A DNA stretch of 64,000 nucleotides from Candidatus Gastranaerophilales bacterium (GTDB lineage: Bacteria; Cyanobacteriota; Vampirovibrionia; Gastranaerophilales; Gastranaerophilaceae), in contig CAAGEQ010000010.1 in NCBI GenBank assembly GCA_900768915.1, positions 45,963 to 109,962 on the forward strand, read 5' to 3'. A program made the translations under genes and the position numbers. Below the pieces are notes generated by a model that made no database searches, was not told the origin of the DNA, and worked only from the letters and a program-made list of their open reading frames with translations. Below are positions 5,877 through 49,843 of the stretch, piece by piece (the first letter of the stretch is position 1; each line of letters begins with the position of its first letter).

Positions 5877-6437
5877 ATGACAATCAACTTCACAGCGAAT
5901 TTTTTAAAGACAGTAAATATCCCTAAACGTACGATTGATGGGAATTATTTTAATACAAAAGTTTCTTTTGTTGAACTAGATAAAAATGATAGAGTTGATA
6001 AAGATTCTTTGAAAAATGTTTCGAAATTGTGGAATAAAAAAGAATTTAATTATGCTTCAGAAATATATTATGATGCTGCAAAACCTTTTGAATACGATAA
6101 TATAGTCAAAGAACATTATTATGCTGTGACTACTCAATCAGAAAATTTTGAAAAGTTGGAGTCTGAAAAGATTTTAGGATTGTCTCTTTTTTCAGAGACT
6201 ACTAAACCTGAAAATGAAATAAATTGGTTACAAACAAATCCTGTTTATAAATACGGTTCTATTGAACCACGTGAATATAAAGGAATTGGCAAAGCAATTA
6301 TTGAATATGTAAAAGAGCATTATAGAGATAAAAATATTAAAGTATTTGCAGCAGACGATGCTATAAATTTTTACAAAAAATTGGGTTTTAAAAATTGTCC
6401 TACAAAAACTGAAAGAGAATTATATTTAGAAGTTTAG
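5877..6437 (+). CDS. Hypothetical protein with a C-terminal GNAT-like acetyltransferase segment
   Basis: YKGIGKAIIEYV...AADDAINFYKKLGFK resembles GNAT motif A plus the C-terminal strand. N-terminus MTINFTANF carries the leader motif. Confidence 0.45.
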   Translation: MTINFTANFLKTVNIPKRTIDGNYFNTKVSFVELDKNDRVDKDSLKNVSKLWNKKEFNYASEIYYDAAKPFEYDNIVKEHYYAVTTQSENFEKLESEKILGLSLFSETTKPENEINWLQTNPVYKYGSIEPREYKGIGKAIIEYVKEHYRDKNIKVFAADDAINFYKKLGFKNCPTKTERELYLEV

Positions 6438-6570
6438 TTTGTATTGTTTGTTAAGATATATTAATTTTCTTCTTGTTTTATTAAAGTTTATATTAAAACA
6501 GTCGTTAATCATGCAAAAGGTATGGTATGCCGTACAATTGGATTAGTTAAATTCAGTAAAGGAGTTCCTC

Positions 6571-8892
6571 GTGGGCATTAATTTGAATGGTAGAAGTATT
6601 GATGGTAATGGTATCACACAAGATAAGTTTAATGAAATATTAAAAAATTCAAATTATTCAGAAAAAGAGAAAAAGGCTGCTTTGGATATTTTCACAAAGT
6701 TTGCAGCGATGGATAATGATAAAACAACTCTTTCCGCAGATGAAGCGAAACAGGCTTTTGCTGAGTTGGAAAAACTTAATACCGATAATGATAATGATGT
6801 ATCTAAAAAAGAATTAAAACAAGGTAAAAATGGTTCGGATTATCAAAAGGCATTGGCTGAAGCCGGAAAAAGTGCCGTTGAATTATTTTATTCAAAAATT
6901 TCAGGAAATACAGATGTTCATTTAAGTAAAGATGAAGTTGGCAATACTGTCGTTACAACATTAAATGATAAAAATACTGTACCCACAAAAGATGATGATT
7001 TTAAAACGACTGTTTATGATGATAAAGGTGAAGTAAAGCATGAGGATAAACATGAAGAACCTCCAAAACTAACTGATAATGATATACAGGCAACATTTTT
7101 AAAATATATTACTAATTCTAAAGATTTTGATGGTAAACTTTTCGGCGAAAATACATTAAATGGATTTTTTGCTGGTGATAATCCACAATTAAAGGTTATT
7201 AATGAAAATGGTAAGGTCGGTATAGAATATAACGGCAAAATGTATAATATGCGTGGCAAAGATGGTGATATTCGTTTTGAATATGATGGTGAAGGTACTG
7301 AAAATAAAGGTGCTGAAACTTTACAACATGCTATTTTAAATTCTAATTCTGATGATGCTATTCATAAATATCATAACCATGGTGAGGCAATAAATTCTGG
7401 CTCTACTTATGATGTTGCAACGGGTACAATTAATCATGGTACAAATAAGGATTCTGTATCCCAATCACAAACTTTTGCATCAATGCTAATGAATGGTAAT
7501 GAAAATTCTACACTTACTCTTGATAAACAAAGAAGTAAAGATGGCTCGTTTGAAACAACAGCAGAACATATTATAAAAACACTTGATAGCAACGAAAATG
7601 GTCAATCAGATAATGAAATCTCTATGAAAGAGTTGATTTCATATCTAAAAGCAGCTGAAGTTGAGTCAAATGGACTTAATGAAAATCAGGCAACGGGTGC
7701 AAGAAGATTCGCTAAAGGTGTTGATTTAGACCTAAAAGATTTGGCAAATATTGGTGCAGTATTTAAAAAATATGATACAACTGGTAATGGAAAACTAGAT
7801 AAAAATGAACTTCAAAAACTTTTAGATGATTTAAAGAAAAATAGTATGTCAAAGTTGGCACAAGGTGAGAAAATTGCTGAATATAAAGGTCCAGATGATA
7901 AAGGTAACAATCCAGTAACACAACTTCACACACCAAGAACAAGAACTGCTAATCGAACAAGAAATGAAGTTAATATAAATGGTAATAAAACTGGAGAAAA
8001 AATACAATATGACTATGAAAATGGTCTTCGTACCGTTGTAAAAGATGGTAAAGAAGATTTAGAAGGTAATATTGCAGAAGAATCTGATCCAGGTTTTGGA
8101 TTAGGTAAAAAACGTTTTGTATATATTGAAGGGCTTCCAATAGAAGTTCGTGCAGAATTAAAACTTGATGAAGAAAGCAAAAGTAAAATTGTTGAAGTAA
8201 AAGACCGTAATGGTAGTGTTAGATATTATAAAGTTGATATTAGTAAAACAGAAGGCGAAGATGATACTTACAAACTTGGTGACGAGTTAGTTAAAAATGG
8301 TAAAAAAATGGTATCACGTCAACAATTAACAGATGATATTTGTAAACAACTTGGTATCAGAGGAGAGAATATTAAACTTCCTGATAATATAACTGCTGAG
8401 TACGGTAAAAATGGTAAAATGACATTCAAGTTGAATGGTAGAATTTGTAATTCTAATTTTGCTAGAGTTGCTATAATGCGTGCTAATTCGGAGGCAAAAG
8501 GACTTGATGATGGTCAACGTAAAGTTGAACTGTCAAGATTGAGAAATAAAAATAAAAAGCCTATTTCATCACAATTAAATTATAATGAAAATGGTAAACT
8601 TGATAATAGAAATATTGATATATCCAATCTTGAAAAAATATATGCTACGGATTCAATTTCGGTATTATTAAGAGATTTTATGAAAAAAAATAAAGATGTT
8701 TCAATTGATAAACAAACTTATAAAATTTCTTCATCTGAAATAAGAAGTAAATCTGGTGAAGTTCTTGTAAAATATGAAAATGGAAAATTTTATAATTCAA
8801 AAGGTAAAGAAATTGATATATATAAAGCACGAGATATATTAGATAAAGCAAGTGATAATCTTGCAAGTTTAATACAAAAATTTAAAGAATAA
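6571..8892 (+). CDS. Large EF-hand-containing protein (773 aa)
   Basis: Canonical EF-hand loop DTTGNGKLDKNE (nt 7774-7809) and several degenerate loops (NTDNDNDVSKKE, DSNENGQSDNEISMKE). GTG start behind AGGAG. No signal peptide. Confidence 0.6.
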   Translation: MGINLNGRSIDGNGITQDKFNEILKNSNYSEKEKKAALDIFTKFAAMDNDKTTLSADEAKQAFAELEKLNTDNDNDVSKKELKQGKNGSDYQKALAEAGKSAVELFYSKISGNTDVHLSKDEVGNTVVTTLNDKNTVPTKDDDFKTTVYDDKGEVKHEDKHEEPPKLTDNDIQATFLKYITNSKDFDGKLFGENTLNGFFAGDNPQLKVINENGKVGIEYNGKMYNMRGKDGDIRFEYDGEGTENKGAETLQHAILNSNSDDAIHKYHNHGEAINSGSTYDVATGTINHGTNKDSVSQSQTFASMLMNGNENSTLTLDKQRSKDGSFETTAEHIIKTLDSNENGQSDNEISMKELISYLKAAEVESNGLNENQATGARRFAKGVDLDLKDLANIGAVFKKYDTTGNGKLDKNELQKLLDDLKKNSMSKLAQGEKIAEYKGPDDKGNNPVTQLHTPRTRTANRTRNEVNINGNKTGEKIQYDYENGLRTVVKDGKEDLEGNIAEESDPGFGLGKKRFVYIEGLPIEVRAELKLDEESKSKIVEVKDRNGSVRYYKVDISKTEGEDDTYKLGDELVKNGKKMVSRQQLTDDICKQLGIRGENIKLPDNITAEYGKNGKMTFKLNGRICNSNFARVAIMRANSEAKGLDDGQRKVELSRLRNKNKKPISSQLNYNENGKLDNRNIDISNLEKIYATDSISVLLRDFMKKNKDVSIDKQTYKISSSEIRSKSGEVLVKYENGKFYNSKGKEIDIYKARDILDKASDNLASLIQKFKE

Positions 8893-8928
8893 TAAACATT
8901 TATTTATGATATAATTTCTTTGGATGAT

Positions 8929-10580: not shown

Positions 10581-10585
10581 TATAT

Positions 10586-15470: not shown

Positions 15471-16511
15471 TTGATTGATAGACATTATAGTTGTGTGATT
15501 ATACAAAATTATAGCCCTAGTGTATCTTATTCAATCAACAAAAATAATAGAACTAATAATTATAAAATTAGTTCGTTACCTTGTGATACAGTATCATTTC
15601 AAGGTCATGCCGGTATCGAAAGATATGCTAAAAATGGGATTGATTATTTGAAACATGAAACTGCTTTTTTTAGAGAAGCAACAACTGATAATTTCGTGAA
15701 AAATTTTATCAAAGATAATTTTGCTGAAAAAAATAAAATAAAAATAGTTATTGGTGGTTGTTCAACAGGTGAAGAAGCCGTCACTTATAGTATGTTGCTT
15801 GATGATATGAAAAATAAAGTTGATATTTTAGGATTTGATTTAAGTAAAACGTCTATTGAACAAGCAAAAAAAAGAACATATTTATTTCATAAACCTAATG
15901 AAAAAGAAAAAGAAGAATTAGAATCTATGGGGGTTGCTGCATATAGAGATTCTTATTTAGTCTTTGATAGTAAAAAACAATTGACCGATGATGAAAAACA
16001 AAATAAAGTATTATTTGATAAATTTTTCGAAAAATCAGATGAAATTGTTGAAAATAAAAAGCCGTTAATTGAACGTTTTCAAGATTGGTTAATTTCAAAA
16101 ATTTATAAAGAACCTCCAATGGCTATGCAGAAAAAATTATACAAATTAAAAGATGGCAAGGCTGATAATTGTAAATTTATTCAAGGTGATATTGAAGATA
16201 TTAGAGGTATTGTCGGTGAAAAGAAAGCAGATGTAATTTTGTTTAGAAATGCTATGTATCATTTAACAACTAAAGAAATTGGTTATGAAGCAACTCGTGT
16301 TCCTAGAAAAAATTCTCCAACAATTGTAGAAAATATTTGTAAAAAAATGAAAGATAGTTTATCTGATAATGGTTTGTTAGTTTTTGGTAAAAATGAACAT
16401 TCTCAAATGGTTGATGAAAATACATTACCAAATGTTATGATGAAATTAGGCTTTAAACCGTTGAATAAATTAGATAATAAACATGTTACTGTTTGGCAAA
16501 AAGTTTCATAA
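15471..16511 (+). CDS. Orphan CheR-type SAM-dependent methyltransferase-like protein
   Basis: GGCSTGEEAVTYSMLL (CheR SAM-binding motif), ILGFDLS...AKKRTY, DVILFRNAMYHL. TTG start. Leader motif DTVSFQG at aa 39-45. Confidence 0.6.
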   Translation: MIDRHYSCVIIQNYSPSVSYSINKNNRTNNYKISSLPCDTVSFQGHAGIERYAKNGIDYLKHETAFFREATTDNFVKNFIKDNFAEKNKIKIVIGGCSTGEEAVTYSMLLDDMKNKVDILGFDLSKTSIEQAKKRTYLFHKPNEKEKEELESMGVAAYRDSYLVFDSKKQLTDDEKQNKVLFDKFFEKSDEIVENKKPLIERFQDWLISKIYKEPPMAMQKKLYKLKDGKADNCKFIQGDIEDIRGIVGEKKADVILFRNAMYHLTTKEIGYEATRVPRKNSPTIVENICKKMKDSLSDNGLLVFGKNEHSQMVDENTLPNVMMKLGFKPLNKLDNKHVTVWQKVS

Positions 16512-19660: not shown

Positions 19661-19752
19661 GTTATAATTTTTTTGTATGTCTTTTGTTATCAATATGTTT
19701 GTGTTACCTTATAAATGTTCGGAATACCTAAACATGTTGAGGAATGTTATTT

Positions 19753-23411: not shown

Positions 23412-24189
23412 TGCCAAATTTTTTGTATGGCATTTTTACTTTTTGAAAAACAAATTCAACTGGAGTTTCTTCAAATCCATTCTTTTGAAGAAGTTCATTT
23501 GTATTACACTCTATATCGTGTTCTCCAATGATAACCAGCGAAGTCGAATCTAGTTTTTCGCCAAGTCTTTGGGCTAATTTTTCTGCTGAATTCCCAACTT
23601 TCGGTAAATATCTCCAAAAATTCCTGCATAACAAAACATTATTTGATTTTGGCATTTGTTCAATATTTTGGAATATATCACCTTGTTTAAAGTTTATTTT
23701 TTCTTTAAGTTCAGTTTTGGGAGAGAGTGCTAAATCATCATAAAAATTTATTTTTGGTGCAAAATCGAAATAATCTCTGTATTTACCATTTGTAGCACAA
23801 TTTATATCATATAATTCTTTGTTGGAAATTCCTAATATTCCGTTCTTCGCATTTTGTATATTTTCTGAGTTGTAATCACTCGCTTGTATTGGGAAAAATT
23901 TTTTTGATTTGTTGCCCATTTGTTGTTGCAATTTTATTGCTAGACTAATTGGTTCGTGACCGTCTGAACAAGCATCATTAAATACGTGTACTTCGTCGCA
24001 ATCTTTATATTTATTTTCAAGTAGTCGAACAAATCTATCCCAGTCTAAATCTTCTCTAAAAAAATATGTTGTTGTTTTGTAGGTTGTACCAGTTTTTGTA
24101 TCAATAAATTGTCTGTTATTAGCAGTGAAGTTTGGACAAGATTGATTAATATATGAATTTTGATAATTAGGTCTTGTATTTATGTTCAT
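23386..24189 (-). CDS. Second orphan CheR-type methyltransferase-like protein
   Basis: DACSDGHEPISLAIKL, IQASDYNSENIQNAKNG, NVLLCRNFWRYL run parallel to the CheR motifs. N-terminus carries CPNFTAN. Confidence 0.5.
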   Translation of the reverse strand: MNINTRPNYQNSYINQSCPNFTANNRQFIDTKTGTTYKTTTYFFREDLDWDRFVRLLENKYKDCDEVHVFNDACSDGHEPISLAIKLQQQMGNKSKKFFPIQASDYNSENIQNAKNGILGISNKELYDINCATNGKYRDYFDFAPKINFYDDLALSPKTELKEKINFKQGDIFQNIEQMPKSNNVLLCRNFWRYLPKVGNSAEKLAQRLGEKLDSTSLVIIGEHDIECNTNELLQKNGFEETPVEFVFQKVKMPYKKFGINPLKYTH

Positions 24190-25978: not shown

Positions 25979-27604
25979 TTATTTTACAATATTTCTGGTT
26001 TGCCAAATATAGGTATTGTCATCTTTAATGCCACCTTCTATATCTTGTGGTACTCCAAATTCTTGTTCTATTGTAAGTGCATCATCAATAATATTATGTA
26101 ATTGTTTGAATAATTTTTTATTATTCGATAAATTATTTTCTATTTTGTCAGAATTAATAATATTCATATCTTCATCAAATGTAACAGATATATTATCCAT
26201 TTGAATAGAATCATATTGTAATTTTTTTGTGTCTTTGTTATACGTGAATATGTGTGGTTGTATAGCATTCTCATAAAACCAAGCATTATCAGAGTATAAG
26301 TCTATTTTTAGATTGTTATTATCATCATCAGTGTATATTGTGAATTTATAGTCTTCATCTATAAAATCTTGAATAATAATTCCGGTTTTTATATCATTAT
26401 CTGGAATTTTGTGACGTTTACGAGATGCAATAGCATCTTTGCTCATTTTTGAATCAGCAACTGTCTCTATGGCATAATATAGCCCCTCTCTTGTGTCTTC
26501 AGGTTCAATGTTTTTGTATACACAAGTAGATGAATAAATTCCTGCCGCAGAATAATTCGGTAAATCTTCACCATTAAAAGAAGAACGTACCATAAATGGG
26601 TTAGAATTTATTTTTTGTTCTTTCATTTTTGATAATATTTCATTCATATTATTTTTTGAATTTTCATCATTATATATTTTATCATTGTTTTCTGTGAATA
26701 GTTTTTCTATATAATTATTCGGAAGTGCAATTGATTTTGGTATTATTGAATGAATTTTTTTTGATTTCGAGAGTTCTTCTAATCGTTTTAAATTTACTGC
26801 TTTTGCCCCTATAATATCACTATTGTATTTATTACTAGTTAGAATTTTGTCACAATTTTTTTGCTGTGGTACATTTATTTTTTTATATTGTTTTGGACTG
26901 TAAGTTTTGTTTGTTTCGTTGAATTTTATATAATTGTCTTTAAGTTCAAGTTCAATATTTTTGCCATTTAATTTTTCTAATTTTTCTATTATTTTAGGAT
27001 TGTATATGGCACCACAAACATCTGTACGTGTTCTTAATTGTGTAGATAAATGAGTGAAACTACCGCTATCATCTGATGTGTATATTATTCCAACAATATT
27101 TGGGTTTGATATGTTTGTATGAAATTTTTTTGCTAAAAGAATTGTTGGTTCATTGATATTGTTTATAAAATCAGAATTATTAAGACCAATATTTTCTTGA
27201 TGTAGAAGTTTACCAGTGGCTTTACCTGATTTTATCGCATGGATTATTGGTTGATTGTGTAGTTTTCTTAGATAAAGAGATGCATTTTGTTGCATTTTTT
27301 TGCAATTTATTTCGTAATCTTTACCGTTTTTGTTATCAATTTTACCACTATCGTCATATTCAATGTGGTAGTTTATTATATTAGATGTTATTGGGATATT
27401 TTGAGTAAAATATTTCCCTTCTTTTTGCATACTTTTTTTGTTTGTGTCCCATTCATAGAAATTCGGTGAAATAAGATAAGGCGAATCTCCTAAATAAGGT
27501 TCGTTGTCAGTTTGTATTGTGACTTCATCATTTTTAGGCCTTATTTTGTATGTATGTGCATCAAAATTGATTTGATTATATGGGTTTAAATAACTTATCC
27601 TCAT
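25979..27604 (-). CDS. Hypothetical protein with a C-terminal PEP/pyruvate-binding (PPDK_N, ATP-grasp) domain
   Basis: GAKAVNLKRLEEL ... MVRSSFNGEDLPNYSAAGIYSS ... IQDFI ... DIEGG resembles the PPDK_N signature (VRSS..EDL...S.AG). ~250 aa unknown N-terminal region. Confidence 0.5.
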   Translation of the reverse strand: MRISYLNPYNQINFDAHTYKIRPKNDEVTIQTDNEPYLGDSPYLISPNFYEWDTNKKSMQKEGKYFTQNIPITSNIINYHIEYDDSGKIDNKNGKDYEINCKKMQQNASLYLRKLHNQPIIHAIKSGKATGKLLHQENIGLNNSDFINNINEPTILLAKKFHTNISNPNIVGIIYTSDDSGSFTHLSTQLRTRTDVCGAIYNPKIIEKLEKLNGKNIELELKDNYIKFNETNKTYSPKQYKKINVPQQKNCDKILTSNKYNSDIIGAKAVNLKRLEELSKSKKIHSIIPKSIALPNNYIEKLFTENNDKIYNDENSKNNMNEILSKMKEQKINSNPFMVRSSFNGEDLPNYSAAGIYSSTCVYKNIEPEDTREGLYYAIETVADSKMSKDAIASRKRHKIPDNDIKTGIIIQDFIDEDYKFTIYTDDDNNNLKIDLYSDNAWFYENAIQPHIFTYNKDTKKLQYDSIQMDNISVTFDEDMNIINSDKIENNLSNNKKLFKQLHNIIDDALTIEQEFGVPQDIEGGIKDDNTYIWQTRNIVK

Positions 27605-28390: not shown

Positions 28391-29902
28391 ATGCTTAGTC
28401 CAATATTAAATTTCAATAAAATAAATACAATAAAACCATTATATGTAAATAATAACAATAATAATTATAAGAATAGATATACAAATCTTGCTCCTCTTAG
28501 ACAAGATACAGTTTCTTTTACAGGTATGTCTATTCCATCTAAATATAAAACTGTATATGAATATTTAGCAGCCGATATAGCATCAAAAAATCAAAAATAT
28601 GGTGTAAATGGTAGTTGCCTTTCTTCTTCTAATATTGGTAAAACAATGGATAAAATGCAAAAAAATGGGACATTGTATCTTCCTTTTCAAGAAGCTTCAA
28701 AAACTAAAATTCGTTGGAAAAATTATGTTCCCGATGATGTTAGAGAATTTTGTGTTGATAAAATAAATCAAGCAAGAGAAATTAGACTTGATGAATGGAA
28801 GTCTTTTTTAGAAAATCCAGAAGCTCATGAAGAAGCGAGTAAATTTCCAAATCTAGTTAAGAAAACTAAAGATAACAATCCAATGAAATTTGTTATTTGG
28901 CACGCAATCAATACTGATTTAAAAGCAAATAACAGACATATTCCAGTTCCATTTGATGTAAAAGCATTAGATGAAACTGTAAATAGTTTTGATGCTATGC
29001 CACCAAAAGATAGAGCATTAAGATGCATTTCTCCAACATTCTTGGAAATGTACACTCATCGACTTAGAGATAATTTATTGATGGAAAAAGGTATTTTAAA
29101 AGAAAAAACTGCTTGGGTAAAAATTCCATCATATAAGCATGATAGAGAAAATAATGATAAAAATATTCATGACTTAGAAATTTTAAGTTGTAGAAACTGG
29201 TGTACACGTTCAAGTGTTGATAAAGCAAAAGATGCATTACTTGATGGTGATTTTTATGTATTTTTAGAAAGAGATAGTAAAAATATGTGGTCACCTCAAA
29301 TCGGTATGGCTACATCAAGAAATAAAGTAGATCAGATTCAAGGTGTTGAAAATAATAACCTTATTCCACTTAATCAAATCGCTAATGTTAAAGAATTTAT
29401 TAAGAAAGAAAAATTAGATTGTGTTAATGGTATTGTTGATGAAGGTCCTAAAGCAGCACAAGAAATTATGATTGCTGATAAATTGGCTCAACATGATGAA
29501 CTATTTGATAAAACTCTTGATAAAGCAATTAAAGAAAAAGATTCTTTTGCAGTATTTTCAATGTTAGGTAAAAAAGTTGAACATAAATCTGATAACACAC
29601 TTGAGATAGAAACTTATAAACCTATATATGTGGCTGATAAACAAAAAGGTATTACAATTCCTTATTCAATGATGGGGATTGAAGAAGATGTTTTACTTAG
29701 AAATGTTAGCAAGATAAAAGGTGATATGATGTTATATAATAAGAATTTTATATATAACAGTCAAATTAAAGAATTTCCACAAAAATTAGAAGAAGTTACT
29801 GGTAAAGTTGTATGTAATCAAAAGCAATATGATAAGTTCGCCGAAGATATCAATAGAGTTGTTAATGGCGATTCTAAAAGAATTGTTGTATATGATAAAT
29901 AA
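28391..29902 (+). CDS. Hypothetical protein, possibly with a PcfJ-like domain
   Basis: LSCRNWCTRSS...GDFYVFLERDS...VDQIQGVENN resembles the PcfJ pattern (Cys-containing motif, short strand, Q.RG.N). Asn-rich leader with DTVSFTG at aa 39-45. Confidence 0.4.
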   Translation: MLSPILNFNKINTIKPLYVNNNNNNYKNRYTNLAPLRQDTVSFTGMSIPSKYKTVYEYLAADIASKNQKYGVNGSCLSSSNIGKTMDKMQKNGTLYLPFQEASKTKIRWKNYVPDDVREFCVDKINQAREIRLDEWKSFLENPEAHEEASKFPNLVKKTKDNNPMKFVIWHAINTDLKANNRHIPVPFDVKALDETVNSFDAMPPKDRALRCISPTFLEMYTHRLRDNLLMEKGILKEKTAWVKIPSYKHDRENNDKNIHDLEILSCRNWCTRSSVDKAKDALLDGDFYVFLERDSKNMWSPQIGMATSRNKVDQIQGVENNNLIPLNQIANVKEFIKKEKLDCVNGIVDEGPKAAQEIMIADKLAQHDELFDKTLDKAIKEKDSFAVFSMLGKKVEHKSDNTLEIETYKPIYVADKQKGITIPYSMMGIEEDVLLRNVSKIKGDMMLYNKNFIYNSQIKEFPQKLEEVTGKVVCNQKQYDKFAEDINRVVNGDSKRIVVYDK

Positions 29903-34408: not shown

Positions 34409-36460
34409 TTAATTGATTAAGTTGTATTCTCTAGAATCTATTATTGTCGATGTATTCATATTCCTGTGTTCTGGTATATCGGATATTTTGCATAGAAAAG
34501 TGCTAAAAACATTATCTTTCTTAAAATTGTTTGTTGTTGTAATTGAATCTATATAAATGATGTCTTCGCCCGATGTTCCAAAAATTTTAAAATTCTTACG
34601 TTCGCATTTATACTCTCTAAGGTTAACTTTACTTCTATTCCAACCAATATAAATTGGCATATCTTCTTTTCCAAGTTCTTTCGTAAATTTTTTAGCATAA
34701 GAAAACATCAAATCTCTAGCATTATCATTTATAGTTCCTTTTCTATAATCAGGTTTCATTTCTATATTATCAAGAACTAATGCCGGTTTGTTGTCGATTT
34801 CTGCAATATAGCAAATTGTGTTACCAATAGGTTTATTATCAGTAAGGACTTCTATTCCGGAAATCATTTTGTTTTTAATATAATTAGGTGCAATTGCTTG
34901 TTTTGAACCTGTTCCTATTGACATACAACAAGAAGAATCATTCCCTAAGAATAATGAATGAGTAATATCATTCATATCAACTTGTTGTGCTGTTATTGTA
35001 ACCTTTTTAGCATTAGGATTTTTCTTTGCTGAAATCATTTTTTGTTTAACATCTTTAATACTGTTTTCTATAGTTTTCTTTGCAATATTTGATTGTGAAG
35101 TGTTATCAGGACTTTTCCAAGATTGATTGTTTTTCATAAAATTATCTATTGTTTCAACCAACTCTGGCATATCTTGAAACGTTATTTGTTTATTATCTTT
35201 AAACAGTTGTAAATAATTTGTATCACGCTTAATAGTACCTACAAAATTATTTAAAAATATAACTTTTGGTTTTATTTCATATCCTTTTGCATTCAATTCT
35301 TTTTTTAACAAGTTTTTCTTATCACTAGAAACCAGTGTATATATTGGTGAATTAAAAGTTTCTTCTAATGATTGTATTGCACTTTTTTGTTTGTTTTCAA
35401 TTACGATTGTTTTTTGTATTTTTGATTCTGGCTTGAAAGTTGTCCATCTTTCAAAATTTACTCCTAGTTCCTCAAATTGTTTTTTTGTTTCTTTATTTTG
35501 TGGAAGCTCTAATAACACCTCTTTAACATTTTTATCTGGATTTTTGTTTAGTGTTTTTAAAAGTTCATCATAAGAATTTTTGAACATTTTATCTGTTGTA
35601 AACATTTTGGGTAAATATTTATTGTTTTTTAAATCAAATTGTTTGCAAATTTGACCATTAGAATCTGTCCTTGCAATATTATTTAAAGTATCAAGCAAAT
35701 GATGATTATTATTTTTGTCGTAATTATTTAAAACAGAACTCAATGTCTCATGAGAATCTTTTATTGTATGAAAGAATTCTGCAAGTTCAATCTTTTCTGG
35801 ATAATCTGTAATAGAATTTTTTATCAAATTTTTATTTTCGTCTGTTAAATGATTTATTTGTTTTATCAAGTCAGTTTTGTTATCTGTTGTTTGAAATTGC
35901 TTTTTTACATTAGTAATTTGTTCTTTTGTATTTTTGTATTTGATACTTTCTGTTGGATTGGTTAATTCTATCAAATTTTGATAGAGTGGATGTTGAGGAG
36001 TAATATCACCAATCGTATTTATGTAATTCTTTACGTTTTCAAACTTGTTATTAAATGATGAGATAAAAGAATTTTTACCGAGAATATTTATTGTGTTCAA
36101 TACTTTATGTGGCTTTTCAAAAAATAACTTGTCTAATTCTTCATTATTAACTTTATGATTGTAGGAAGATAAAACGCCACGTTTTTCAGAAGCGACATTT
36201 CTAATATCCATAAGTGTTTTTGCTTGTTCTAAATTATTCAAATGCCCTTTTACAAAATTTATTAGATATTGATTAGGGTATCCCATTTTTACTAATTGTA
36301 AAATGGTTTTACTAGTAATAAAATATGAGTTTTCATAATTGCCACAAAAACTTATATTTGATTGTTTATTATCTTTTATGACATTAGTAGTTTGAACTTT
36401 TTGTTTTAAATTTGCATAATGACATTTGTTATTATTATTTGATACTCGCAAAATGTTCAT
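34409..36460 (-). CDS. Orphan 683-aa Asn/Lys-rich protein
   Basis: Long uninterrupted ORF. Leader ends in NISFCG (aa 35-40). C-terminal module HSLFLGNDSSCCMSIG...ALVLDNIE. No NTPase or nuclease motif recognised. Confidence 0.6.
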   Translation of the reverse strand: MNILRVSNNNNKCHYANLKQKVQTTNVIKDNKQSNISFCGNYENSYFITSKTILQLVKMGYPNQYLINFVKGHLNNLEQAKTLMDIRNVASEKRGVLSSYNHKVNNEELDKLFFEKPHKVLNTINILGKNSFISSFNNKFENVKNYINTIGDITPQHPLYQNLIELTNPTESIKYKNTKEQITNVKKQFQTTDNKTDLIKQINHLTDENKNLIKNSITDYPEKIELAEFFHTIKDSHETLSSVLNNYDKNNNHHLLDTLNNIARTDSNGQICKQFDLKNNKYLPKMFTTDKMFKNSYDELLKTLNKNPDKNVKEVLLELPQNKETKKQFEELGVNFERWTTFKPESKIQKTIVIENKQKSAIQSLEETFNSPIYTLVSSDKKNLLKKELNAKGYEIKPKVIFLNNFVGTIKRDTNYLQLFKDNKQITFQDMPELVETIDNFMKNNQSWKSPDNTSQSNIAKKTIENSIKDVKQKMISAKKNPNAKKVTITAQQVDMNDITHSLFLGNDSSCCMSIGTGSKQAIAPNYIKNKMISGIEVLTDNKPIGNTICYIAEIDNKPALVLDNIEMKPDYRKGTINDNARDLMFSYAKKFTKELGKEDMPIYIGWNRSKVNLREYKCERKNFKIFGTSGEDIIYIDSITTTNNFKKDNVFSTFLCKISDIPEHRNMNTSTIIDSREYNLIN

Positions 36461-36513: not shown

Positions 36514-37218
36514 TTATTCATTTGTATCTGCAACATAAGTGCTTACACTATTTGAATTGTATAAATGTTTTACGATTTTTACCCAATCATTATATTTGAA
36601 AACTCCACCAAGCCAATTATCTAAAATGATTGAATCTGCTTCAACTTTATCATTTTCGTTTTTATCTTTAACTAATACTGCAACGTGATTTGAAATTACA
36701 TCGTCATTTAAAATGCTTGCATATAAAAGTTTTGCATTGTATTTATCTTGTTTTTGGTTTATATCTTCGGCTGTAACTAATGATATATCAGTACAATTGC
36801 CGATTTTGCGTTCTTTCATACGTGCTTTTAAATTTTTACCATAATTATCTTTACTGCGACATTCTTTACGCATTTTATTTATATTATCAGTTAATGTTGA
36901 ATCATAATTTGGTGAAAGAGGGTTTAATACAAGTTGTTGCATTGAACCCGATTTTATTGTACCAAATTCTGAGATAAAATTTTTTCTGCAATCAGATGCA
37001 AAATTTAATTTTTCTGATTTTAATACATAATTTGTACTTAAATCATACTTTTCAACCATATTTTTTAATTCAAGATATTTAGGTGAGGAAAAATATGATG
37101 GAAACGTATTTTGAGTTTCAGAATTTTTAGGTACGAAAATTTGATACTCGGCTGTAGGAGTATCGTATTTTTGAATATTTGAAAAATTATTTATATAAAA
37201 GTTTTCATCTATCCTCAT
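36514..37218 (-). CDS. Orphan 234-aa protein with candidate Cys-His-Asp (papain/transglutaminase-like) residues
   Basis: Ordered IGNCTD, SNHVAVLV, IILDNW in the C-terminal half. Confidence 0.5.
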   Translation of the reverse strand: MRIDENFYINNFSNIQKYDTPTAEYQIFVPKNSETQNTFPSYFSSPKYLELKNMVEKYDLSTNYVLKSEKLNFASDCRKNFISEFGTIKSGSMQQLVLNPLSPNYDSTLTDNINKMRKECRSKDNYGKNLKARMKERKIGNCTDISLVTAEDINQKQDKYNAKLLYASILNDDVISNHVAVLVKDKNENDKVEADSIILDNWLGGVFKYNDWVKIVKHLYNSNSVSTYVADTNE

Positions 37219-43216: not shown

Positions 43217-43220
43217 GAAA

Positions 43221-44153: not shown

Positions 44154-44161
44154 GTTTAATT

Positions 44162-44812
44162 ATGGAAAATGCTCTTATAATTTTATTTGGTTTAACAATG
44201 CTTTATATGGCTGCAACTAGCAGAATTATGGCTCATATCCGTATTCTTGTTGCTCAAGGTATATTATTGTTTTTGATTTGCTATTTCGGAATAGAAAAAA
44301 CATCTATTCTTAATTGTATATTCTTAGCATTTGAAACTTTAATAGTTAAGGCGTGTGTTATTCCGATGTTTTTAAACAAAATTGTGAAAACTACTCATCA
44401 ATATAGAGATGCAGAAGCAAACATTCCTCATTTTTATTGTTTGTTTATCTCTACAGTGATTTTATTCTCAGGATTTTTGATTTCAGATGTTAATTTTCCT
44501 GCTATGAAAATGATTAATCCTGTTTATTTGGGTGTTTCAATTGCTGTTATAATTATTAGTTTGTTGTTGATAACAATTAAGCATAAAATTATTACTAATA
44601 TTGTTGAGTTTATAACAATGGAAAATGGTATATTCTTATTATCATTGGCTGTTGTAAAAGAAATGCCAATAATTGTAAATCTTGGCGTACTTTTAGATTT
44701 ATTTATCGCAGTATTTATTTTAGGACTTCTAGTTAATAGAATTAACAAAGAATTTGAAGGACTTGAAGTTTCTCATTTGTCAGATTTGAAGGATTGTGAA
44801 TATGATGATTAA
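44162..44812 (+). CDS. HyfE-like membrane subunit
   Basis: 216 aa polytopic protein in the HyfE position, of HyfE-like size. Confidence 0.6.
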   Translation: MENALIILFGLTMLYMAATSRIMAHIRILVAQGILLFLICYFGIEKTSILNCIFLAFETLIVKACVIPMFLNKIVKTTHQYRDAEANIPHFYCLFISTVILFSGFLISDVNFPAMKMINPVYLGVSIAVIIISLLLITIKHKIITNIVEFITMENGIFLLSLAVVKEMPIIVNLGVLLDLFIAVFILGLLVNRINKEFEGLEVSHLSDLKDCEYDD

Positions 44813-46241
44813 TTTACTTTTGATATTTCCAATAGTTGCCACATTATTGTTGGTAATTTTAAAAAATAAGTGGCTTAACAATGCAACTTTGATTGTTTAT
44901 GCATTGATGCATTTTGCATTGTCTTGTACTTATTTAGTAAATCCGAGTTTGATTGAAAAAACTCAATATTTTGCGATTGATTCTACAAATTTCATTTTTA
45001 TGATGTTGTTATCGATTGTATTCTTGGCAGTTGCTATATATAACAATGGTTATATGCGACATAGTGAAGCATCTGCGAGAAGTCTTAGTCATTATTCAGG
45101 AATGACATTAATATTTGTTATGGCAATTACAGGTGCTATTTTGAGTAATAATTTAGGACTTTCTTGGGTGTTTATTGAGGCAACAACTTTAGCAAGTGCA
45201 TATCTTATTTGTTTCAATAAAACAAAACATTCTATTGAAGCTGCTTGGAAGTATGTATTTATTTGTTCAATTGGTATTGCATTAGCATTTGTTGGTATTA
45301 TTTTACTTACTATTGCAACTGGTTCTGTGAATACGTTGGCATTCAATGATTTGTATATTCATGCACAATCATTTAATCATTTTTGGTTGAAATTATCATT
45401 TGTATTTATATTATTTGGTATTGGTACAAAGATGGGTTTAGCACCGGTTCATTTTTGGTTGCCTGATGCTCACTCAGAAGCACCAACTCCAATTTCTGCA
45501 CTTTTATCTGCTGCACTTTTGAATTCTGCTTTTCTTATTATTTTAAAAGTTTACAGGATTGTTCTATTGGCAGGTTGTGAAAGTTTTGCAAAAATAATGA
45601 TGTTGGCGATGGGATTTATTTCATTGTTTATTACAGCAGTATTTATTTATTACATTACTAATTATAAAAGAATGCTTGCATATTCTTCTGTTGAAAATAT
45701 GGGTATTTTAGTTATTGGTACTGCATTAGGTGGTATTGCAATGTATGCTGCGATTTTGCATATGATTGCTCATTCATTGATTAAAGCATCATTCTTCTTA
45801 ACTTCTGGTAATGTTTTAGATATATATAATACAAAGAAAATTAAATCTGTTTCAGGTATTTTGAAACTTGATAAAACAACTGGTTGGTTGTGGATATTCT
45901 CATTCTTGGGTATTGCAGCATTTCCACCATCATTGTTATTCATTAGTGAATTTTTGATGATTAAAACAATGGTGGTTCAAAAACAGTTTGTTTTATGCGT
46001 ATTCTTTGTAGTGTTATTAACAATTATTTTATTCGGTTTAGCAAAAACAATTATTAGAATGAGTTTTGGTGAACCAAATGAAAAGAAAATTGATATGTAT
46101 AATGACAATGTGAAGAAATTATCTGTAGGTATGTATTTACCTCAAATAGTTATGTTGCTTTCAGCATTTGCATTAGGTTGTTATGTTCCACCTTGTGTTA
46201 ATAATTTGATTAATGCAGTAATTGTTGGATTTGGGGGTTAA
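44796..46241 (+). CDS. Antiporter-like membrane subunit (HyfF / NuoM/N-type)
   Basis: WLPDAHSEAPTPISALLSAALLNSA; 481 aa. Confidence 0.85.
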   Translation: MNMMINLLLIFPIVATLLLVILKNKWLNNATLIVYALMHFALSCTYLVNPSLIEKTQYFAIDSTNFIFMMLLSIVFLAVAIYNNGYMRHSEASARSLSHYSGMTLIFVMAITGAILSNNLGLSWVFIEATTLASAYLICFNKTKHSIEAAWKYVFICSIGIALAFVGIILLTIATGSVNTLAFNDLYIHAQSFNHFWLKLSFVFILFGIGTKMGLAPVHFWLPDAHSEAPTPISALLSAALLNSAFLIILKVYRIVLLAGCESFAKIMMLAMGFISLFITAVFIYYITNYKRMLAYSSVENMGILVIGTALGGIAMYAAILHMIAHSLIKASFFLTSGNVLDIYNTKKIKSVSGILKLDKTTGWLWIFSFLGIAAFPPSLLFISEFLMIKTMVVQKQFVLCVFFVVLLTIILFGLAKTIIRMSFGEPNEKKIDMYNDNVKKLSVGMYLPQIVMLLSAFALGCYVPPCVNNLINAVIVGFGG

Positions 46242-46243
46242 TA

Positions 46244-47701
46244 ATGGATTGGTATATAGCAAAAAATAATGAATTGATTAATATATCTGATATACCTTGT
46301 TTGGATATTGAAACATTAAGACAAGAAATTATTAAATTAAATAAAAGAGTTGTTGCATTCTTTGGTAAAAGAGAATGGAACGGTGTAAAACTTTATGTTG
46401 CAATGGCTGATGATTCAAAAGGTCAATTGTATGTATCATCTTCATTCTTTGATAATACATTTGAAAAGTATTATGAATCATTAACTCAAGTGATACCTGC
46501 TTTTCACATGTTTGAAAGAGAATTTTATGAAGAATTTGGTATTGAACCATTGCATCACCCTTGGTTAAAACCTGTTCGGGATCACAAAAAAGAATATCCA
46601 TTCTTTGAAGTTGAAGGTGAAGAAGTTCACCAAGTTGGTGTTGGTCCTATTCACGCAGGGGTTATTGAACCTGGACATTTTAGATTTATGTGTAATGGTG
46701 AAAAAGTTTATGACCTAGAAATTAGATTAGGTTATCAATCTAAGGGGATTGAAGATTTAATTGTAAAAGAACCATCAAATCAATTAGCAGAATCTATATG
46801 TGGTGATAGTGTTATTGCATATAATTTGGCCTATTCAAGAGTTATGGAGTCTTTAAAAGGTATAAAAATTTCTAATAAAGCAGAGATTATTAGGTTAATT
46901 GCATTAGAGATGGAAAGATGTGCTATTCATATCGGTGATTTAGGTGCGATTGCTGGTGATACTGCTTATCAAATGGGTGCTGCAATTTTTGGTGTTACAA
47001 GAACTCTCGTAATCAATACAATGTTAGAATTGTGTGGTAGCCGTTTTGGTAGAGGGTTGATTACTGTTGGTGGTGTAAATTATGATATTGATGAACAATT
47101 TGCTGAAAAGATTTTAACTATGTTTAAAAAGGTTTCAGATGATGTTAAAAGAACATTTGCAACTATGTTGAAATCTCCAACTGTTATCTCACGTTTAGAA
47201 AAAACTGGTGTTGTTAGTAACGCAACTGCCTTAGAATTAGGATTAGTTGGTATGGCTGCAAAAGCATCTGGTGTTGAATTGGATTCAAGATTTGATTTTC
47301 ACGAAAAATGGCTTGAAGGTATTGAAGACAAAAAAATTAAAGCCAATGGTGATGTTTATTCTAGAACTAGAGAAAGATATAAAGAAGTGCTTCAATCAAT
47401 ATTTATTATTAAACAATTATTGAAGAAACTTCCTGAATATAAAAATGAACCTTTATGTGTTGATTGTAACAATCAATATAAGCCTGATACAATGGTTATT
47501 TCTATTGTAGAAGGTTGGAGAGGTGAAGTTGTTCATACTGCAATAACTGATGATTATGATAATCTTGCAAGATACAAGGTTAAAGATCCATCATTCAATA
47601 ATTGGTATGGATTAGCAATGGCTGTTAGAAATAATGGAATTTCAGATTTCCCATTGTGTAATAAGAGTTTCAATCTTTCATATTGTGGAAATGATTTATA
47701 A
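46244..47701 (+). CDS. Group-4 [NiFe]-hydrogenase large-subunit / NuoD-like protein with degenerate metal-ligand motifs
   Basis: GPIHAGVIEPGHFRF core. L1 position reads ICGDSVIAY (expected CG.C...H). The C-terminus reads NLSYCGNDL (expected DPC..C..R). Confidence 0.8.
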   Translation: MDWYIAKNNELINISDIPCLDIETLRQEIIKLNKRVVAFFGKREWNGVKLYVAMADDSKGQLYVSSSFFDNTFEKYYESLTQVIPAFHMFEREFYEEFGIEPLHHPWLKPVRDHKKEYPFFEVEGEEVHQVGVGPIHAGVIEPGHFRFMCNGEKVYDLEIRLGYQSKGIEDLIVKEPSNQLAESICGDSVIAYNLAYSRVMESLKGIKISNKAEIIRLIALEMERCAIHIGDLGAIAGDTAYQMGAAIFGVTRTLVINTMLELCGSRFGRGLITVGGVNYDIDEQFAEKILTMFKKVSDDVKRTFATMLKSPTVISRLEKTGVVSNATALELGLVGMAAKASGVELDSRFDFHEKWLEGIEDKKIKANGDVYSRTRERYKEVLQSIFIIKQLLKKLPEYKNEPLCVDCNNQYKPDTMVISIVEGWRGEVVHTAITDDYDNLARYKVKDPSFNNWYGLAMAVRNNGISDFPLCNKSFNLSYCGNDL

Positions 47702-47712
47702 GGGATAATAAA

Positions 47713-48462
47713 ATGTTTGATACTTTAAAATTAAAATTTTTTCAAGGAAATCAATTTATAAAAGATATTGAAAATGCACCAATGAGAGATGCATTTAGAG
47801 GATTTCCTATTTTAAATGATAAAGTTGATTGTTCTGGATTGGAAAATGTTTGTCCAACAGGTGCGTTATCAACTAATCCATTATGTATTGATATGGGTAA
47901 ATGTACATTTTGTGGTAAATGTGCAAGATGTTCAGAAGCAGTTAAATTTACGAATGGATACAAATTAACATCATCTTCTAGAGATAAATTAATTGTTAAA
48001 CCTGATATGACTTATGAAGAATATCAAAAAACTGCAGTTGAAGTTAAAAAAGAAATTGTCAAAGTGTTTGGTAAATCTTTGAAGTTAAGACAAGTTTCAG
48101 CAGGTGGTTGTAATGGCTGCGAAATGGAATTGAATGCTTGTTCAAATTGTAATTTTGATATGGGTAGATTTGGTATTGATTTTGTTGCATCTCCTCGTCA
48201 TGCTGATGGTTTAGTTATTACTGGTCCAATTTCAGAAAATATGGCTTATGCTTTAGAAGATTGTTATAAATCGACACCTGATCCTAAAATAGTAATTTTA
48301 TGTGGTGCTTGTGCTATTAGTGGTGGTATATTTCAACACGCAGACAAATTAAATAGAGAATTTTTGGATAAGTATCCTATAGATTTGTATATTCCAGGTT
48401 GTCCAACTCATCCACTTACATTTATTAATGGTGTGTTGAGTTATATAAAAAATAAGAAGTAA
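47713..48462 (+). CDS. NuoB/HycG-like small subunit fused to an N-terminal ferredoxin-like segment
   Basis: N-terminus CPTGAL...CTFCGKCARC. NuoB part has GGCNGCEMEL, CGACAISGG, PGCPTHP, so all four proximal-cluster Cys are present. Confidence 0.8.
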   Translation: MFDTLKLKFFQGNQFIKDIENAPMRDAFRGFPILNDKVDCSGLENVCPTGALSTNPLCIDMGKCTFCGKCARCSEAVKFTNGYKLTSSSRDKLIVKPDMTYEEYQKTAVEVKKEIVKVFGKSLKLRQVSAGGCNGCEMELNACSNCNFDMGRFGIDFVASPRHADGLVITGPISENMAYALEDCYKSTPDPKIVILCGACAISGGIFQHADKLNREFLDKYPIDLYIPGCPTHPLTFINGVLSYIKNKK

Positions 48463-48477
48463 GATACATAAATGATT

Positions 48478-48515
48478 AAAAAACTCTACTAAATTTATTT
48501 AGTAGAGTTTTTTTT
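48478..48515 (+). terminator. Intrinsic terminator after the hyf-like operon
   Basis: 16-bp stem (AAAAAACTCTACTAAA / TTTAGTAGAGTTTTTT), 4-nt loop, T8 tail, 16 nt after the stop. Confidence 0.7.
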
Positions 48516-48529
48516 AATAATTGTAAAAA

Positions 48530-48571
48530 ATAATGTATGAAATAACAAAATTTTGTTATTTCATACATTAT
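48530..48571. repeat. 42-bp perfect palindrome
   Basis: ATAATGTATGAAATAACAAAA|TTTTGTTATTTCATACATTAT checked base by base; A-run upstream and T5 downstream. Confidence 0.9.
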
Positions 48572-48601
48572 ACTTTTTGTAAATACTAGTATGGTGTAAA
48601 A

Positions 48602-49843
48602 ATGGTTAAAGCTGTTTCTTTCGGTAATCCGTTAAGAAAATTATATAATTGTTTAAAAAATCAAAAGAAACCGAAATCTCAATATGAACTTTTGGAGAAA
48701 ACTAAAAATTTGCCAGTAAAAAATTTTCCTGCTGGTTCTTGGACTTTGCCTGTTGGGGCTAAGACATTTACTAGGGTTCAGATTGGTAAAAAATTAGATG
48801 AAAGTTATCATAGAGAAGTTGTTACTTTTTATGATGATAAAAATAAAATAATAAAAAGGTGCTTTAAGGGCACTGGTATGAATAAGAAAATTAGAGAGTA
48901 TGAATATGATTTTACATTACCACCAAAAAATACGGATATTGGTGGTGCTTATGGTGTTAATATTAGAAGAATAAAAACAAAAGAGGCATTTCCGGAATCT
49001 TATGATGTATCAAATTATTTTGTATGGACTGATACGGTAAATGAAGAACAGTTCGTTGCAATAATGTTTGATAAAAGGAGAGGAGCAAAACTTGCACGAA
49101 AAATACATATAAATAAAAACGAATACTCTTATGGAGAAGATTTAGATGGGATTAAAGCGACTTGTATTGAGTATCCAATAAATTTAGGTTTTGAACCTAA
49201 AACTAATAAAAAAGTTTTATCTGTTGATATTTCAGTTTCTAATAACAATGTTAACAATACACGAATCAATTCTGAAACAAATGTTAAGGTTGATGAAAAT
49301 GATGTGTTTTTACCTTATCGATTGATGTTAGGTAAAGGAAAACAAGAAAGATTAGCACAATATTTTTTGAATAAAAAAGGGCTTGGAGATAAAGGTATTT
49401 TTATAGAAACTAATCCAGAAAGAGTTCAAGGAAATGCATCTGCGTATTTTTCATCATCTAGTAGGGAAATCGTTTTTAAAAATGTATTATTGGGATATCA
49501 CCCAGTTAGGACTGCTGCTCATGAAGCAGAGCATGCTTATCAGCATTGTCAGGTTGGTCGTTTAGGAAGAGCTGAGACTGCTTATGAAAAAGAGTGTGCA
49601 TTAACAAAAGGTAATCTAACAAATATTTCTGAAATAGAAGAAGCCATAAAATATGCTGATGCAAGAAAATGTTATCCTGATACAATTGGGATAGAAGATT
49701 TAAGTAAATGCAAAGAATATAAAGAAAATTATCTAGAGATTAAAGCAAATGAAGCAGGTGCTAATGCTTTAAAAATTTATGAAGTAGGTAGAACGGCATT
49801 AAAAAATATTTTCAAATTTGTAACTAGTTATAATTCTTTTTAG
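48602..49843 (+). CDS. Orphan protein with an HExxH motif (putative metallopeptidase)
   Basis: TAAHEAEHAYQH in the C-terminal third. N-terminus MVKAVSFGN carries the leader motif. No signal peptide. Confidence 0.5.
   Translation: MVKAVSFGNPLRKLYNCLKNQKKPKSQYELLEKTKNLPVKNFPAGSWTLPVGAKTFTRVQIGKKLDESYHREVVTFYDDKNKIIKRCFKGTGMNKKIREYEYDFTLPPKNTDIGGAYGVNIRRIKTKEAFPESYDVSNYFVWTDTVNEEQFVAIMFDKRRGAKLARKIHINKNEYSYGEDLDGIKATCIEYPINLGFEPKTNKKVLSVDISVSNNNVNNTRINSETNVKVDENDVFLPYRLMLGKGKQERLAQYFLNKKGLGDKGIFIETNPERVQGNASAYFSSSSREIVFKNVLLGYHPVRTAAHEAEHAYQHCQVGRLGRAETAYEKECALTKGNLTNISEIEEAIKYADARKCYPDTIGIEDLSKCKEYKENYLEIKANEAGANALKIYEVGRTALKNIFKFVTSYNSF

Follow-up and report, generated by a model that had tools for sequence, protein, structure and literature searches.

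Unrelated proteins of Gastranaerophilales share an acid-poor N-terminal leader that ends in a conserved Phe-x-Gly/Ala motif

Why do proteins with mutually unrelated bodies begin in the same way? The question is raised by a 64,000-nucleotide stretch of DNA from Candidatus Gastranaerophilales bacterium (assembly GCA_900768915.1, contig CAAGEQ010000010.1, positions 45,963 to 109,962; below, the window), in which several orphan, enzyme-like proteins start with a leader that closes on a phenylalanine followed, one residue on, by glycine or alanine. Gastranaerophilales are widespread, uncultured gut relatives of cyanobacteria, and many of their genes are unannotated. Here we report that at least 15 unrelated protein families of this lineage start with a disordered leader of about 5–60 residues, the core motif of which is [D/N/Q]-[T/S/N]-[V/I]-x-F-x-[G/A], with the F and the G/A nearly invariant. 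We are confident that this shared leader exists, is under selection and, within the libraries searched, has not been described. With a probability of roughly 45%, we read it as a lineage-specific N-terminal tag for Sec-independent sorting or export.

The window holds 57 open reading frames (ORFs) and has a GC content of about 29% throughout. All peptides quoted in the original prediction were confirmed at their coordinates, and the leader is carried by six of the 57 ORFs, namely 5877, 15471, 23386, 28391, 34409 and, probably, 25979. It usually opens with M-x-[I/V] and ends where the folded body begins:

28391..28525, forward strand: leader of ORF 28391-29902 (503-residue orphan, novel fold); M-L-S-P-I-L-N-F, Asn-rich spacer, D39-T-V-S-F43-T-G45
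15495..15605, forward strand: leader of the CheR-like methyltransferase ORF 15471-16511; M-I-I-Q-N-Y, spacer, D-T-V-S-F-Q-G
36341..36460, reverse strand: leader of ORF 34409-36460 (683-residue orphan); M-N-I-L-R-V, Asn/Lys/Gln spacer, S-N-I-S-F-C-G (residues 34-40)
5877..5897, forward strand: short leader of the GNAT ORF 5877-6437; M-T-I-N-F-T-A
24121..24189, reverse strand: leader of the second CheR-like ORF 23386-24189; M-N-I-N-T-R-P-N-Y-Q-N-S-Y-I-N-Q-S-C-P-N-F-T-A
27557..27604, reverse strand: probable leader of the PPDK_N/ATP-grasp ORF 25979-27604; M-R-I-S-Y-L-N-P-Y-N-Q-I-N-F-D-A

Behind these leaders, Pfam recognizes CheR in ORFs 15471 (2.2e-15) and 23386 (2.4e-20), PPDK_N in ORF 25979 (1e-20) and GNAT in ORF 5877. 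The listed TTG start of ORF 15471 is probably wrong and the GTG at 15495 the true one: a near-identical database protein (P0152) begins MIIQNYSPS, matching this GTG, which would give the protein the usual M-I-I beginning. A position-specific scoring matrix (PSSM) was trained on the 28391, 15471, 34409 and GNAT 5877 families, leaving the other window proteins held out. Among the latter, 23386 scored highest (8.6) and 25979 second (6.4); ORF 5877, whose family is in the training set, scored 6.8. A paralogue of ORF 23386 (L156 4406-5278, 30% identical) carries P-x-F-T-A in the same place (..K-P-T-F-T-A-H). The leader of ORF 25979 has no acidic residue ahead of its motif, and its membership is probable, as judged by the PSSM score rather than by orthologs.

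The leaders are conserved in orthologs, with the motif retained in 224 of 228 relatives from four unrelated families. In the 28391 family, F-x-G-x-S is present in 120 of 120 relatives (46–100% identical), and F43 and G45 are invariant across 41 aligned orthologs; just upstream of the Phe, D occurs in 86%, T in 68% (S in 20%) and V in 72% (V or I in 82%). The 15471 family keeps D[TS]VSF.GH in 56 of 59 homologs, with F35 invariant. In the 34409 family, an M-[KN]-I start and [VI]-x-F-x-[GAS] are found together in 28 of 29 homologs, the most distant keeper being a 1195-residue relative at 28% identity. Members of the GNAT 5877 family in related loci are of the NNVQFGA[KR] type in 20 of 20 cases and start as M-[QEN]-[IV]-x...N-N-[VL]-[QHS]-F-G-[AG]-[KR]. 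The conserved positions are thus a polar D/N at −4, T/S/N at −3, an aliphatic residue at −2, F at 0 and G/A at +2. Of the pattern originally proposed, [IV]-[SN]-F-x-[GA], the shared F and G/A are real, but the [SN] position is variable in orthologs (S, C, N, T, H, R or Q). The residue between the Phe and the G/A also varies (T, K, R, G, S, Q, D or C), K, M, H, L, R, N or A follows the G/A, and at +4 there is a hydrophobic residue in the 15471, 34409, GNAT and fam22 families and a Ser in the 28391 family.

Ahead of the motif lies a hypervariable spacer of 0–60 residues. The roughly 35 residues that precede the motif in the 28391 family have neither fixed sequence nor fixed length, so that the Phe may stand anywhere from residue 12 to residue 73, and the spacer of the 34409 family likewise varies in both respects. 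The median position of the Phe is residue 32–40 in the three long-leader families; in 8 of 32 leader families it lies at or before residue 12. At the extreme N-terminus, position 3 is I or V in 88% of the 34409 family, 65% of the 15471 family and 80% of the GNAT family, and position 5 is I, L or V in 88% of the 28391 family. The motif is under purifying selection and the extreme N-terminus more weakly so, and the spacer drifts freely. The codons of the invariant Gly (GGA 29, GGT 20, GGC 16 and GGG 13) include all four possibilities, which places selection on the protein and not on a DNA element. A DNA-level element, such as an internal ribosome-binding site or a slippery site, was rejected: besides all Gly codons, several Thr, Val and Ser codons are used, and the leaders are open and in frame in more than 200 orthologs.

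Such N-termini might instead be accidents of composition. The genome is AT-rich (about 29% GC), its codons favour Asn, Ile, Phe, Ser, Lys and Tyr, the pattern was chosen post hoc from the data, and loose regular expressions also match structural strands in NrdG-like, EamA and PGI proteins (these and MarR-like matches were treated as false positives). Codon bias of this kind had been named in the original prediction as what could account for the motif. The strict pattern [IV][SN]F.[GA] has 5 matches within the first 50 residues of the 57 ORFs, against 0.28 expected from 2000 composition-preserving shuffles per N-terminus, none of which reached 5; the remaining 16,919 residues of the window ORFs contain 2 matches. 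Because the pattern was defined on the window itself, we gave greater weight to tests outside it. The independent set comprised 80 metagenome loci (1.1 Mb) taken from around fliI, an unrelated gene. There, a PSSM score of at least 8 was reached within the first 80 residues by 20 of 422 families, compared with 8 of 649 internal windows (Fisher P = 5e-4), and a score of at least 10 by 14 of 422 families, compared with 3 of 649 equally long internal windows (P = 3e-4). As genes were called by taking the longest ORF from its first ATG, some N-termini are wrong and the counts are approximate. The leader is found on roughly 3–5% of families, and the window is unusually dense in it.

Composition points in the same direction. 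Asp and Glu make up 1.5–1.8% of the spacers of the three long-leader families compared with 12.6% proteome-wide, a depletion of about 7-fold, and N/Q/S/T/Y make up 46–51% compared with 25%; Lys and Arg are at a normal 11–14%, leaving the leader net basic, and it is also Pro-rich. As GAT and GAA are as AT-rich as AAT and AAA, the exclusion of acidic residues is not a matter of base composition. The first 12 residues lack D and E in 67% of leader-family representatives and in 39% of others (P = 0.006). Moreover, F and G/A stay nearly invariant in orthologs that are only 46–58% identical while neighbouring residues drift, and Gly is encoded by GC-rich codons, all four of which are in use. Together with the repeated enrichment in the fliI-centred loci, these tests refute chance or a composition artefact, to which we assign a negligible probability. 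Neither of the two refuting conditions set in the original prediction, AT-rich codon bias and a lack of conservation in orthologs, holds.

The original prediction counted at least seven ORFs as sharing the leader, and saw weaker versions in two more. Six of the seven hold, with 25979 as the probable one, and the seventh (48602) does not; neither weaker version stands:

48602..49843, forward strand: HExxH orphan with VSFGN, non-member
6571..8892, forward strand: EF-hand protein with GINLNG, non-member
36514..37218, reverse strand: orphan with NNFSN, non-member

ORF 48602 scored 2.3, and its motif is not kept by its relatives. Among 85 full-length relatives (P0209-P0318, taken from a search of 1.84 billion representatives), which include a 96%-identical copy, only two reach a PSSM score of at least 6, with the match at residues 44-48 and not at the N-terminus; the HExxH family is without the F-x-G/A motif. 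ORF 6571 was rejected because its INLNG lacks the Phe, and ORF 36514 because it scored −3.2 and has D and E at positions 4-5 of its N-terminus. ORF 9438 was also rejected. The 773-residue product of 6571-8892, in which Pfam recognizes an EF-hand, exemplifies a second recurrent N-terminus, M-G-[IL]-[ND]-[FL]-[NS], that is found on unrelated proteins (also L055 13243-13584 and fam43, for example L012 6875-8395) and may be a separate tag.

All named homologs of ORF 28391 are from Candidatus Gastranaerophilales or Melainabacteria, as are almost all of the 80 species-representative loci, which places the window in the non-photosynthetic branch of the cyanobacterial lineage. Comparison of leader-stripped family alignments by hhalign found a single link, between 15471 and 23386, both CheR-like; the 28391, 34409, GNAT, PPDK_N, fam22, fam92 and fam6 bodies are mutually unrelated. 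Common ancestry of the bodies was therefore rejected, and the claim that one tag sits on unrelated modules holds outside the CheR-like pair. The fliI-centred loci added to the carriers, among others, a RelA_SpoT-domain protein, a third CheR-like protein and one with a weak HNH match, and in L149 several adjacent small orphans are all carriers. The first locus set added more, looking like polytopic membrane and long coiled-coil proteins; none of 10 further carriers from this set had a Pfam match above the curated cut-off. Carriers also lie together: around positions 10000-15300 of L018-L057, a gene order that is conserved in part runs from fam22 or fam6 (MTEINF[GT]S) through a 28391 ortholog and a helicase-like gene of about 1020 residues to a GNAT leader gene.

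Structure prediction, which the original prediction had proposed as a test of whether the leader is a disordered tag, places it outside the fold in both families modelled. For the 28391 protein (AlphaFold, 41 orthologs), the mean predicted local distance difference test score (pLDDT) of the body is 88.7, that of residues 1-29 is below 50, and the motif at residues 41-45 is modelled as coil; a PDB fold search with the body returned no match with E < 0.5. In the CheR-like 15471 protein, residues 1-35, including the invariant Phe35, are below 50, and no strand begins before residue 39. The models do not support the idea that the motif forms the opening strand of each fold, as it is coil or of low confidence in both. 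The best-conserved residues are thus not packed on the protein's own fold, as is usual for short linear motifs that require a partner in trans. Aliphatic, Phe and small residues alternate, which suggests an extended strand with one face buried that one common partner might read in trans.

The described signals that we compared do not account for the leader, in line with the earlier view that these ORFs have no classical signal peptide. A Sec type I signal, which has a hydrophobic h-region of about 10–15 residues behind a basic n-region, was rejected because the leaders have at most 4–8 hydrophobic residues per 15-residue window and a 46–51% share of N/Q/S/T/Y; as for an AxA cleavage site, position −3 relative to the G/A is Phe and not a small residue. 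No RR motif or hydrophobic stretch was present in the leaders examined, which excludes a Tat signal (S/T-R-R-x-F-L-K and a hydrophobic stretch), and no conserved Cys follows the G/A as in a lipobox, L-[AS]-[GA]-C. A class III type IV prepilin signal, in which a short basic leader closing on G or A is followed by F/M-T-L-x-E and a hydrophobic helix, does not fit, as Phe precedes the Gly here and no such helix follows; the genuine prepilins of the same loci (KKAFTLAEVLITLGIIG) differ from the leader. A double-glycine (C39/PCAT) leader is defined by G-G, G-A or G-S at −2/−1, preceded by an amphipathic helix whose conserved hydrophobic positions are −4, −7 and −12. Here, Gly stands at −2 only in the proteins with F-G-A, which are the GNAT family and some of the 34409 family; T, K, R or S takes this place in the 28391 and 15471 families, and AlphaFold predicts no helix. 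In a Pfam/NCBIfam scan of the leader proteins no model spanned the leader, and a literature search on the motif or on secretion in Gastranaerophilales returned nothing relevant and no description of the leader, consistent with the first impression that it is not a described signal. The prepilins are themselves numerous: fam9, in L002-L045, comprises many type IV pilin-like paralogues with a K-[KG]-A-F-T-L-A-E-V-L-I-T-L-G-I-I-G N-terminus, up to three per 20 kb (for example L032 13197-13976, 16369-17046 and 17638-18384).

What, then, would the leader do? In composition it resembles known targeting peptides, and its distinctive trait is an unusually sharp motif on hypervariable, acid-free spacers. 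One carrier bears on location. L161 5077-5973 (reverse strand) opens with M-T-V, continues with about 150 S/T/P/N/F/Y-rich residues containing IFNFGTPRY and ends in a VanY/Peptidase_M15_4 domain, without a hydrophobic signal. Its substrate, peptidoglycan, lies outside the cytoplasm, which suggests that this carrier may leave the cytoplasm. The bodies of the other carriers depend on S-adenosylmethionine (SAM), acetyl-CoA or ATP and could function only in cytoplasm, be it that of the producing cell or that of a target. Sets of translocated effectors typically show such a mix, which is equally compatible with clients of a cytoplasmic hub. Beside the peptidase gene, L161 4064-4906 (reverse strand) encodes a paralogue with an M-T-[IV] start, the same low-complexity region with IF[SN]FG[AT]PRY and no hydrophobic signal; its C-terminal domain has no Pfam match and no match in a PDB sequence search, which left a guess at a CHAP-like amidase unsupported.

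The hub alternative holds that the leader tethers diverse clients to one intracellular partner, which might be a scaffold, a membrane complex or a cytoskeletal element, or else an AAA+ unfoldase or protease for which the disordered tail is the initiation site, with no translocation. It would suit the cytoplasmic cofactors of many carriers (SAM for the CheR types, acetyl-CoA for GNAT, ATP for PPDK_N and RelA_SpoT), the apparent polytopic membrane carriers, and the 28391 family, which occurs in 85 stretches from species-representative genomes with partly conserved neighbours, as housekeeping genes would. A disordered tail with a short strand-type motif also resembles many hub-binding peptides. 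Docking would, however, explain neither the near-total exclusion of acidic residues from the spacer nor the tag on a VanY/M15 peptidoglycan peptidase that lacks a Sec signal, and no hub candidate protein was identified. We regard it as rather unlikely.

Under the reading that we favour, the tag would route its carriers to Sec-independent sorting or export. The best candidate machine would be the flagellar-type type III export apparatus, which this lineage appears to retain, often without filament genes; the candidacy follows from that apparent retention and from the comparable two-part signal of early flagellar substrates. The flagellar gene sets of the lineage range from partial to complete in the literature, with complete sets in only three of nine Gastranaerophilales genomes (PMC4040986). 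We found a FliI/YscN-family ATPase (TIGR01026, 551 bits) that reaches the subfamily cut-off but not the FliI and SctN equivalog cut-offs and is 84–99% identical among the best 80 of 330 metagenome stretches. Its gene is solitary and outside a flagellar cluster (L062 4539-5888, reverse strand; L065 3401-4750, reverse strand; L081-L160), and on three contigs (L062, L065 and L081) it lies about 5 kb from 28391 orthologs. The ATPase is widespread in gut metagenomes, but the loci centred on its gene brought in no other flagellar genes. Regular expressions for rod/hook, FlhA, FlhB and flagellin signatures, run over 2.5 Mb of related loci, hit FliI only. Beyond this ATPase, no injectisome genes were seen.

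The export signal of Salmonella FlgD consists of 2-SIAV-5 and 36-FLTLL-40, with at least 19 and optimally about 24 residues in between (PMC8983047). Like FlgD and other early flagellar substrates, the leader proteins are without a Sec-type hydrophobic core, have a small hydrophobic element after Met1 (here M-x-I/V), a polar disordered spacer and, in the long-leader families, a Phe-centred motif at about residue 32–40; they are likewise unchaperoned carriers of unrelated function, in a lineage that conserves a FliI-family ATPase. The two signals differ in that Phi-x-F-x-[G/A] is strand-like (i, i+2), whereas FxxxPhi is helix-like (i, i+4), and in that the spacer may be absent here, whereas FlgD needs at least 19 residues. 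Export of the leader proteins would be a prediction.

Injectisome effectors offer a second comparison within type III secretion. The rules for Pseudomonas syringae Hop proteins call for an aliphatic residue or Pro at position 3 or 4, no acidic residue in the first 12 and a polar-rich N-terminus. The leader families resemble them in their acid-free first 12 residues (67% compared with 39%, as above), in Ile or Val at position 3 in 65–85% of members of three deep families, in being polar-rich and disordered, and in effector-like cargo. Type III effector signals are not known to have an invariant motif, and the motif here is far more sharply conserved across unrelated proteins than in any known type III signal.

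Several observations weigh against export, against the flagellar machine, or against both. Some carriers look like polytopic membrane proteins when their sequences are read (fam22, L059 15902-18385), and some carrier families behave as core genes, being conserved, present in roughly one copy and in part syntenic, as effectors usually are not; nor was a small immunity-like gene seen beside the window members on the ORF map. A Phe at or before residue 12, as in the 8 of 32 families above, is below the flagellar minimum spacing, the invariant G/A at +2 has no counterpart in the FxxxPhi docking motif, and the +4 residue is hydrophobic in only about half of the families. At family level, position 3 is I, L or V in 38% compared with 24% of others (P = 0.10, with crude start calls). 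An export core without a propeller and many type III-like leaders form a coherent picture, which is unproven; that a flagellar-type apparatus reads the leader we consider doubtful. The original suggestion that the leader looks like the secretion or sorting signal of an effector set therefore stands in part: it is borne out by the disordered, basic, acid-poor leader and the effector-like cargo (CheR, GNAT, PPDK_N, RelA_SpoT and VanY/M15), and is at odds with the polytopic carriers, the core-gene behaviour and the lack of immunity-like genes seen beside the window members.

The position of the motif exactly at the boundary between disordered leader and folded body, the free length of the leader and the fixed small residue, which is typical of cleavage sites, also raise the possibility that Phi-x-F-x-[G/A] is a processing site, at which a dedicated protease removes the leader as Prp does from ribosomal protein L27; cleavage would then either mature the enzymes or follow export. 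Prp recognizes MLxx(D/N)LQ(F/L)F'A(S/H)KK on the L27 extension of Firmicutes (PMC9405229), an element that resembles the leader in being short, in its M-L/I start and in its Phi-Q-F-x-A end. The substrates that this source reports or proposes are L27, phage capsid and scaffold proteins and possibly FlhB, the last of these, with the superficially similar motif, being a further point in favour (PMC9405229). Yet Prp cleaves after the F and before the A, Phe being the P1 residue of all the L27 and FlhB motifs quoted there, and this position is variable here, for which reason a Prp/L27-type motif was rejected; the L27 extension, as the same source describes it, is only 8–12 residues long; and its list of phyla encoding Prp or long L27 omits Cyanobacteria and Melainabacteria (PMC9405229). 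Cleavage in itself would also leave the acid-free spacer unexplained. No Prp or L27 gene was found in about 1.46 Mb of DNA, which does not include the rplU-rpmA locus, by tblastn with the Bacillus subtilis Prp, L21 and L27 proteins, none of which gave a match; flagellin was likewise not found. We consider a propeptide unlikely.

The D-T-V-S-F-T-G-K of the 28391 family recalls yet another short element. TonB boxes of the PROSITE PS00430 type follow [DENF]-[ST]-[LIVMF]-[LIVSTEQ]-V-x-[AGP]-[STANEQPK], and the peptide fits this pattern at all positions but one. Like the TonB box, which is read by strand addition, the motif would be a short strand-forming element of the form D-T-x-x-Phi-x-[A/G] that ends a disordered N-terminal segment. 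The carriers would on this account be colicin-type bacteriocins, whose N-terminus threads through an outer-membrane receptor of the target cell and binds TonB; colicins have disordered polar N-terminal domains and enzymatic cargo, and a peptidoglycan peptidase, a RelA_SpoT domain and a weak HNH match are found among the carriers. The sole mismatch, however, is the invariant residue itself, which is Phe (in 100% of anchored deep-family members) where the TonB box has Val. In addition, the D-T prefix occurs in two families only and is absent from most (GNAT, 34409 and fam22), apparent polytopic membrane proteins are tagged, and the carriers are conserved orthologs that behave as core genes, with no immunity-like gene seen adjoining the window members, rather than bacteriocin-immunity modules. 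The identification as a TonB box was rejected on the Val position and the prefix, and an import signal of this kind is in our view very improbable.

A looser parallel is with chloroplast transit peptides, which carry a semi-conserved FGLK-type motif (Phe, Gly or Pro, a small and a basic residue) and stand on hundreds of unrelated proteins. They share with the leader its variable length, lack of structure, scarcity of acidic residues and richness in hydroxyl and amide side chains, and their motif may be compared with F-G-A-[KR] and F-T-G-K here. Transit peptides, however, serve import into a eukaryotic organelle, and the resemblance is one of composition only.

The window also has genes typical of an ordinary chromosome, with dnaG, rpoD, gltD and genes for an M16 peptidase, UDG, a P-type ATPase, ZIP and SulP transporters, a two-component pair, an aminotransferase, an enzyme of the acyl-CoA synthetase type, adenine deaminase and a TrmB regulator. 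Of two paralogous BioB-type radical-SAM genes, one is at 19744-20691, with Radical_SAM and BATS by Pfam, and the other at 61561-62484, assigned by family clustering only. At 37477-40810, two C-5 cytosine DNA methylases (PF00145, E of about 1e-73 and 1e-76) stand next to each other, with a NOV_C-domain protein behind them, in what is probably a restriction-modification island; the methylase stretch has the lowest GC of the window (24.7%) and adjoins the leader gene 34409 and the orphan 36514. A membrane-bound hydrogenase module of the hyf/Ech type (41246-48462; Proton_antipo_M, Complex1_49kDa and Oxidored_q6) stands directly upstream of 48602.

One leader on about 3–5% of gene families (6 of 57 ORFs here) groups much of the dark proteome of this lineage into one functional class. 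It predicts a route of sorting or secretion that has gone unrecognized, and any genome can be scanned for the leader. Were it a docking or processing motif, it would still imply one partner that handles dozens of unrelated clients; were it an export signal, it would supply a ready list of exported proteins and a possible role for the incomplete flagellar sets noted since 2013. In its boldest form, which we put forward as speculative and improbable as it stands, gut Gastranaerophilales would use a filament-less flagellar core as a secretion system, with the leader as the address label on some 50–100 orphans per genome. If so, methyltransferases, an acetyltransferase, an ATP-grasp enzyme, a RelA/SpoT-like nucleotidyltransferase, a possible nuclease and a peptidoglycan peptidase would leave the cell, possibly into other microbes or host-associated cells. 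The leader would then be without precedent among type III signals in having a sharply defined sequence motif, and would explain what the puzzling partial flagellar gene sets of this lineage are for.

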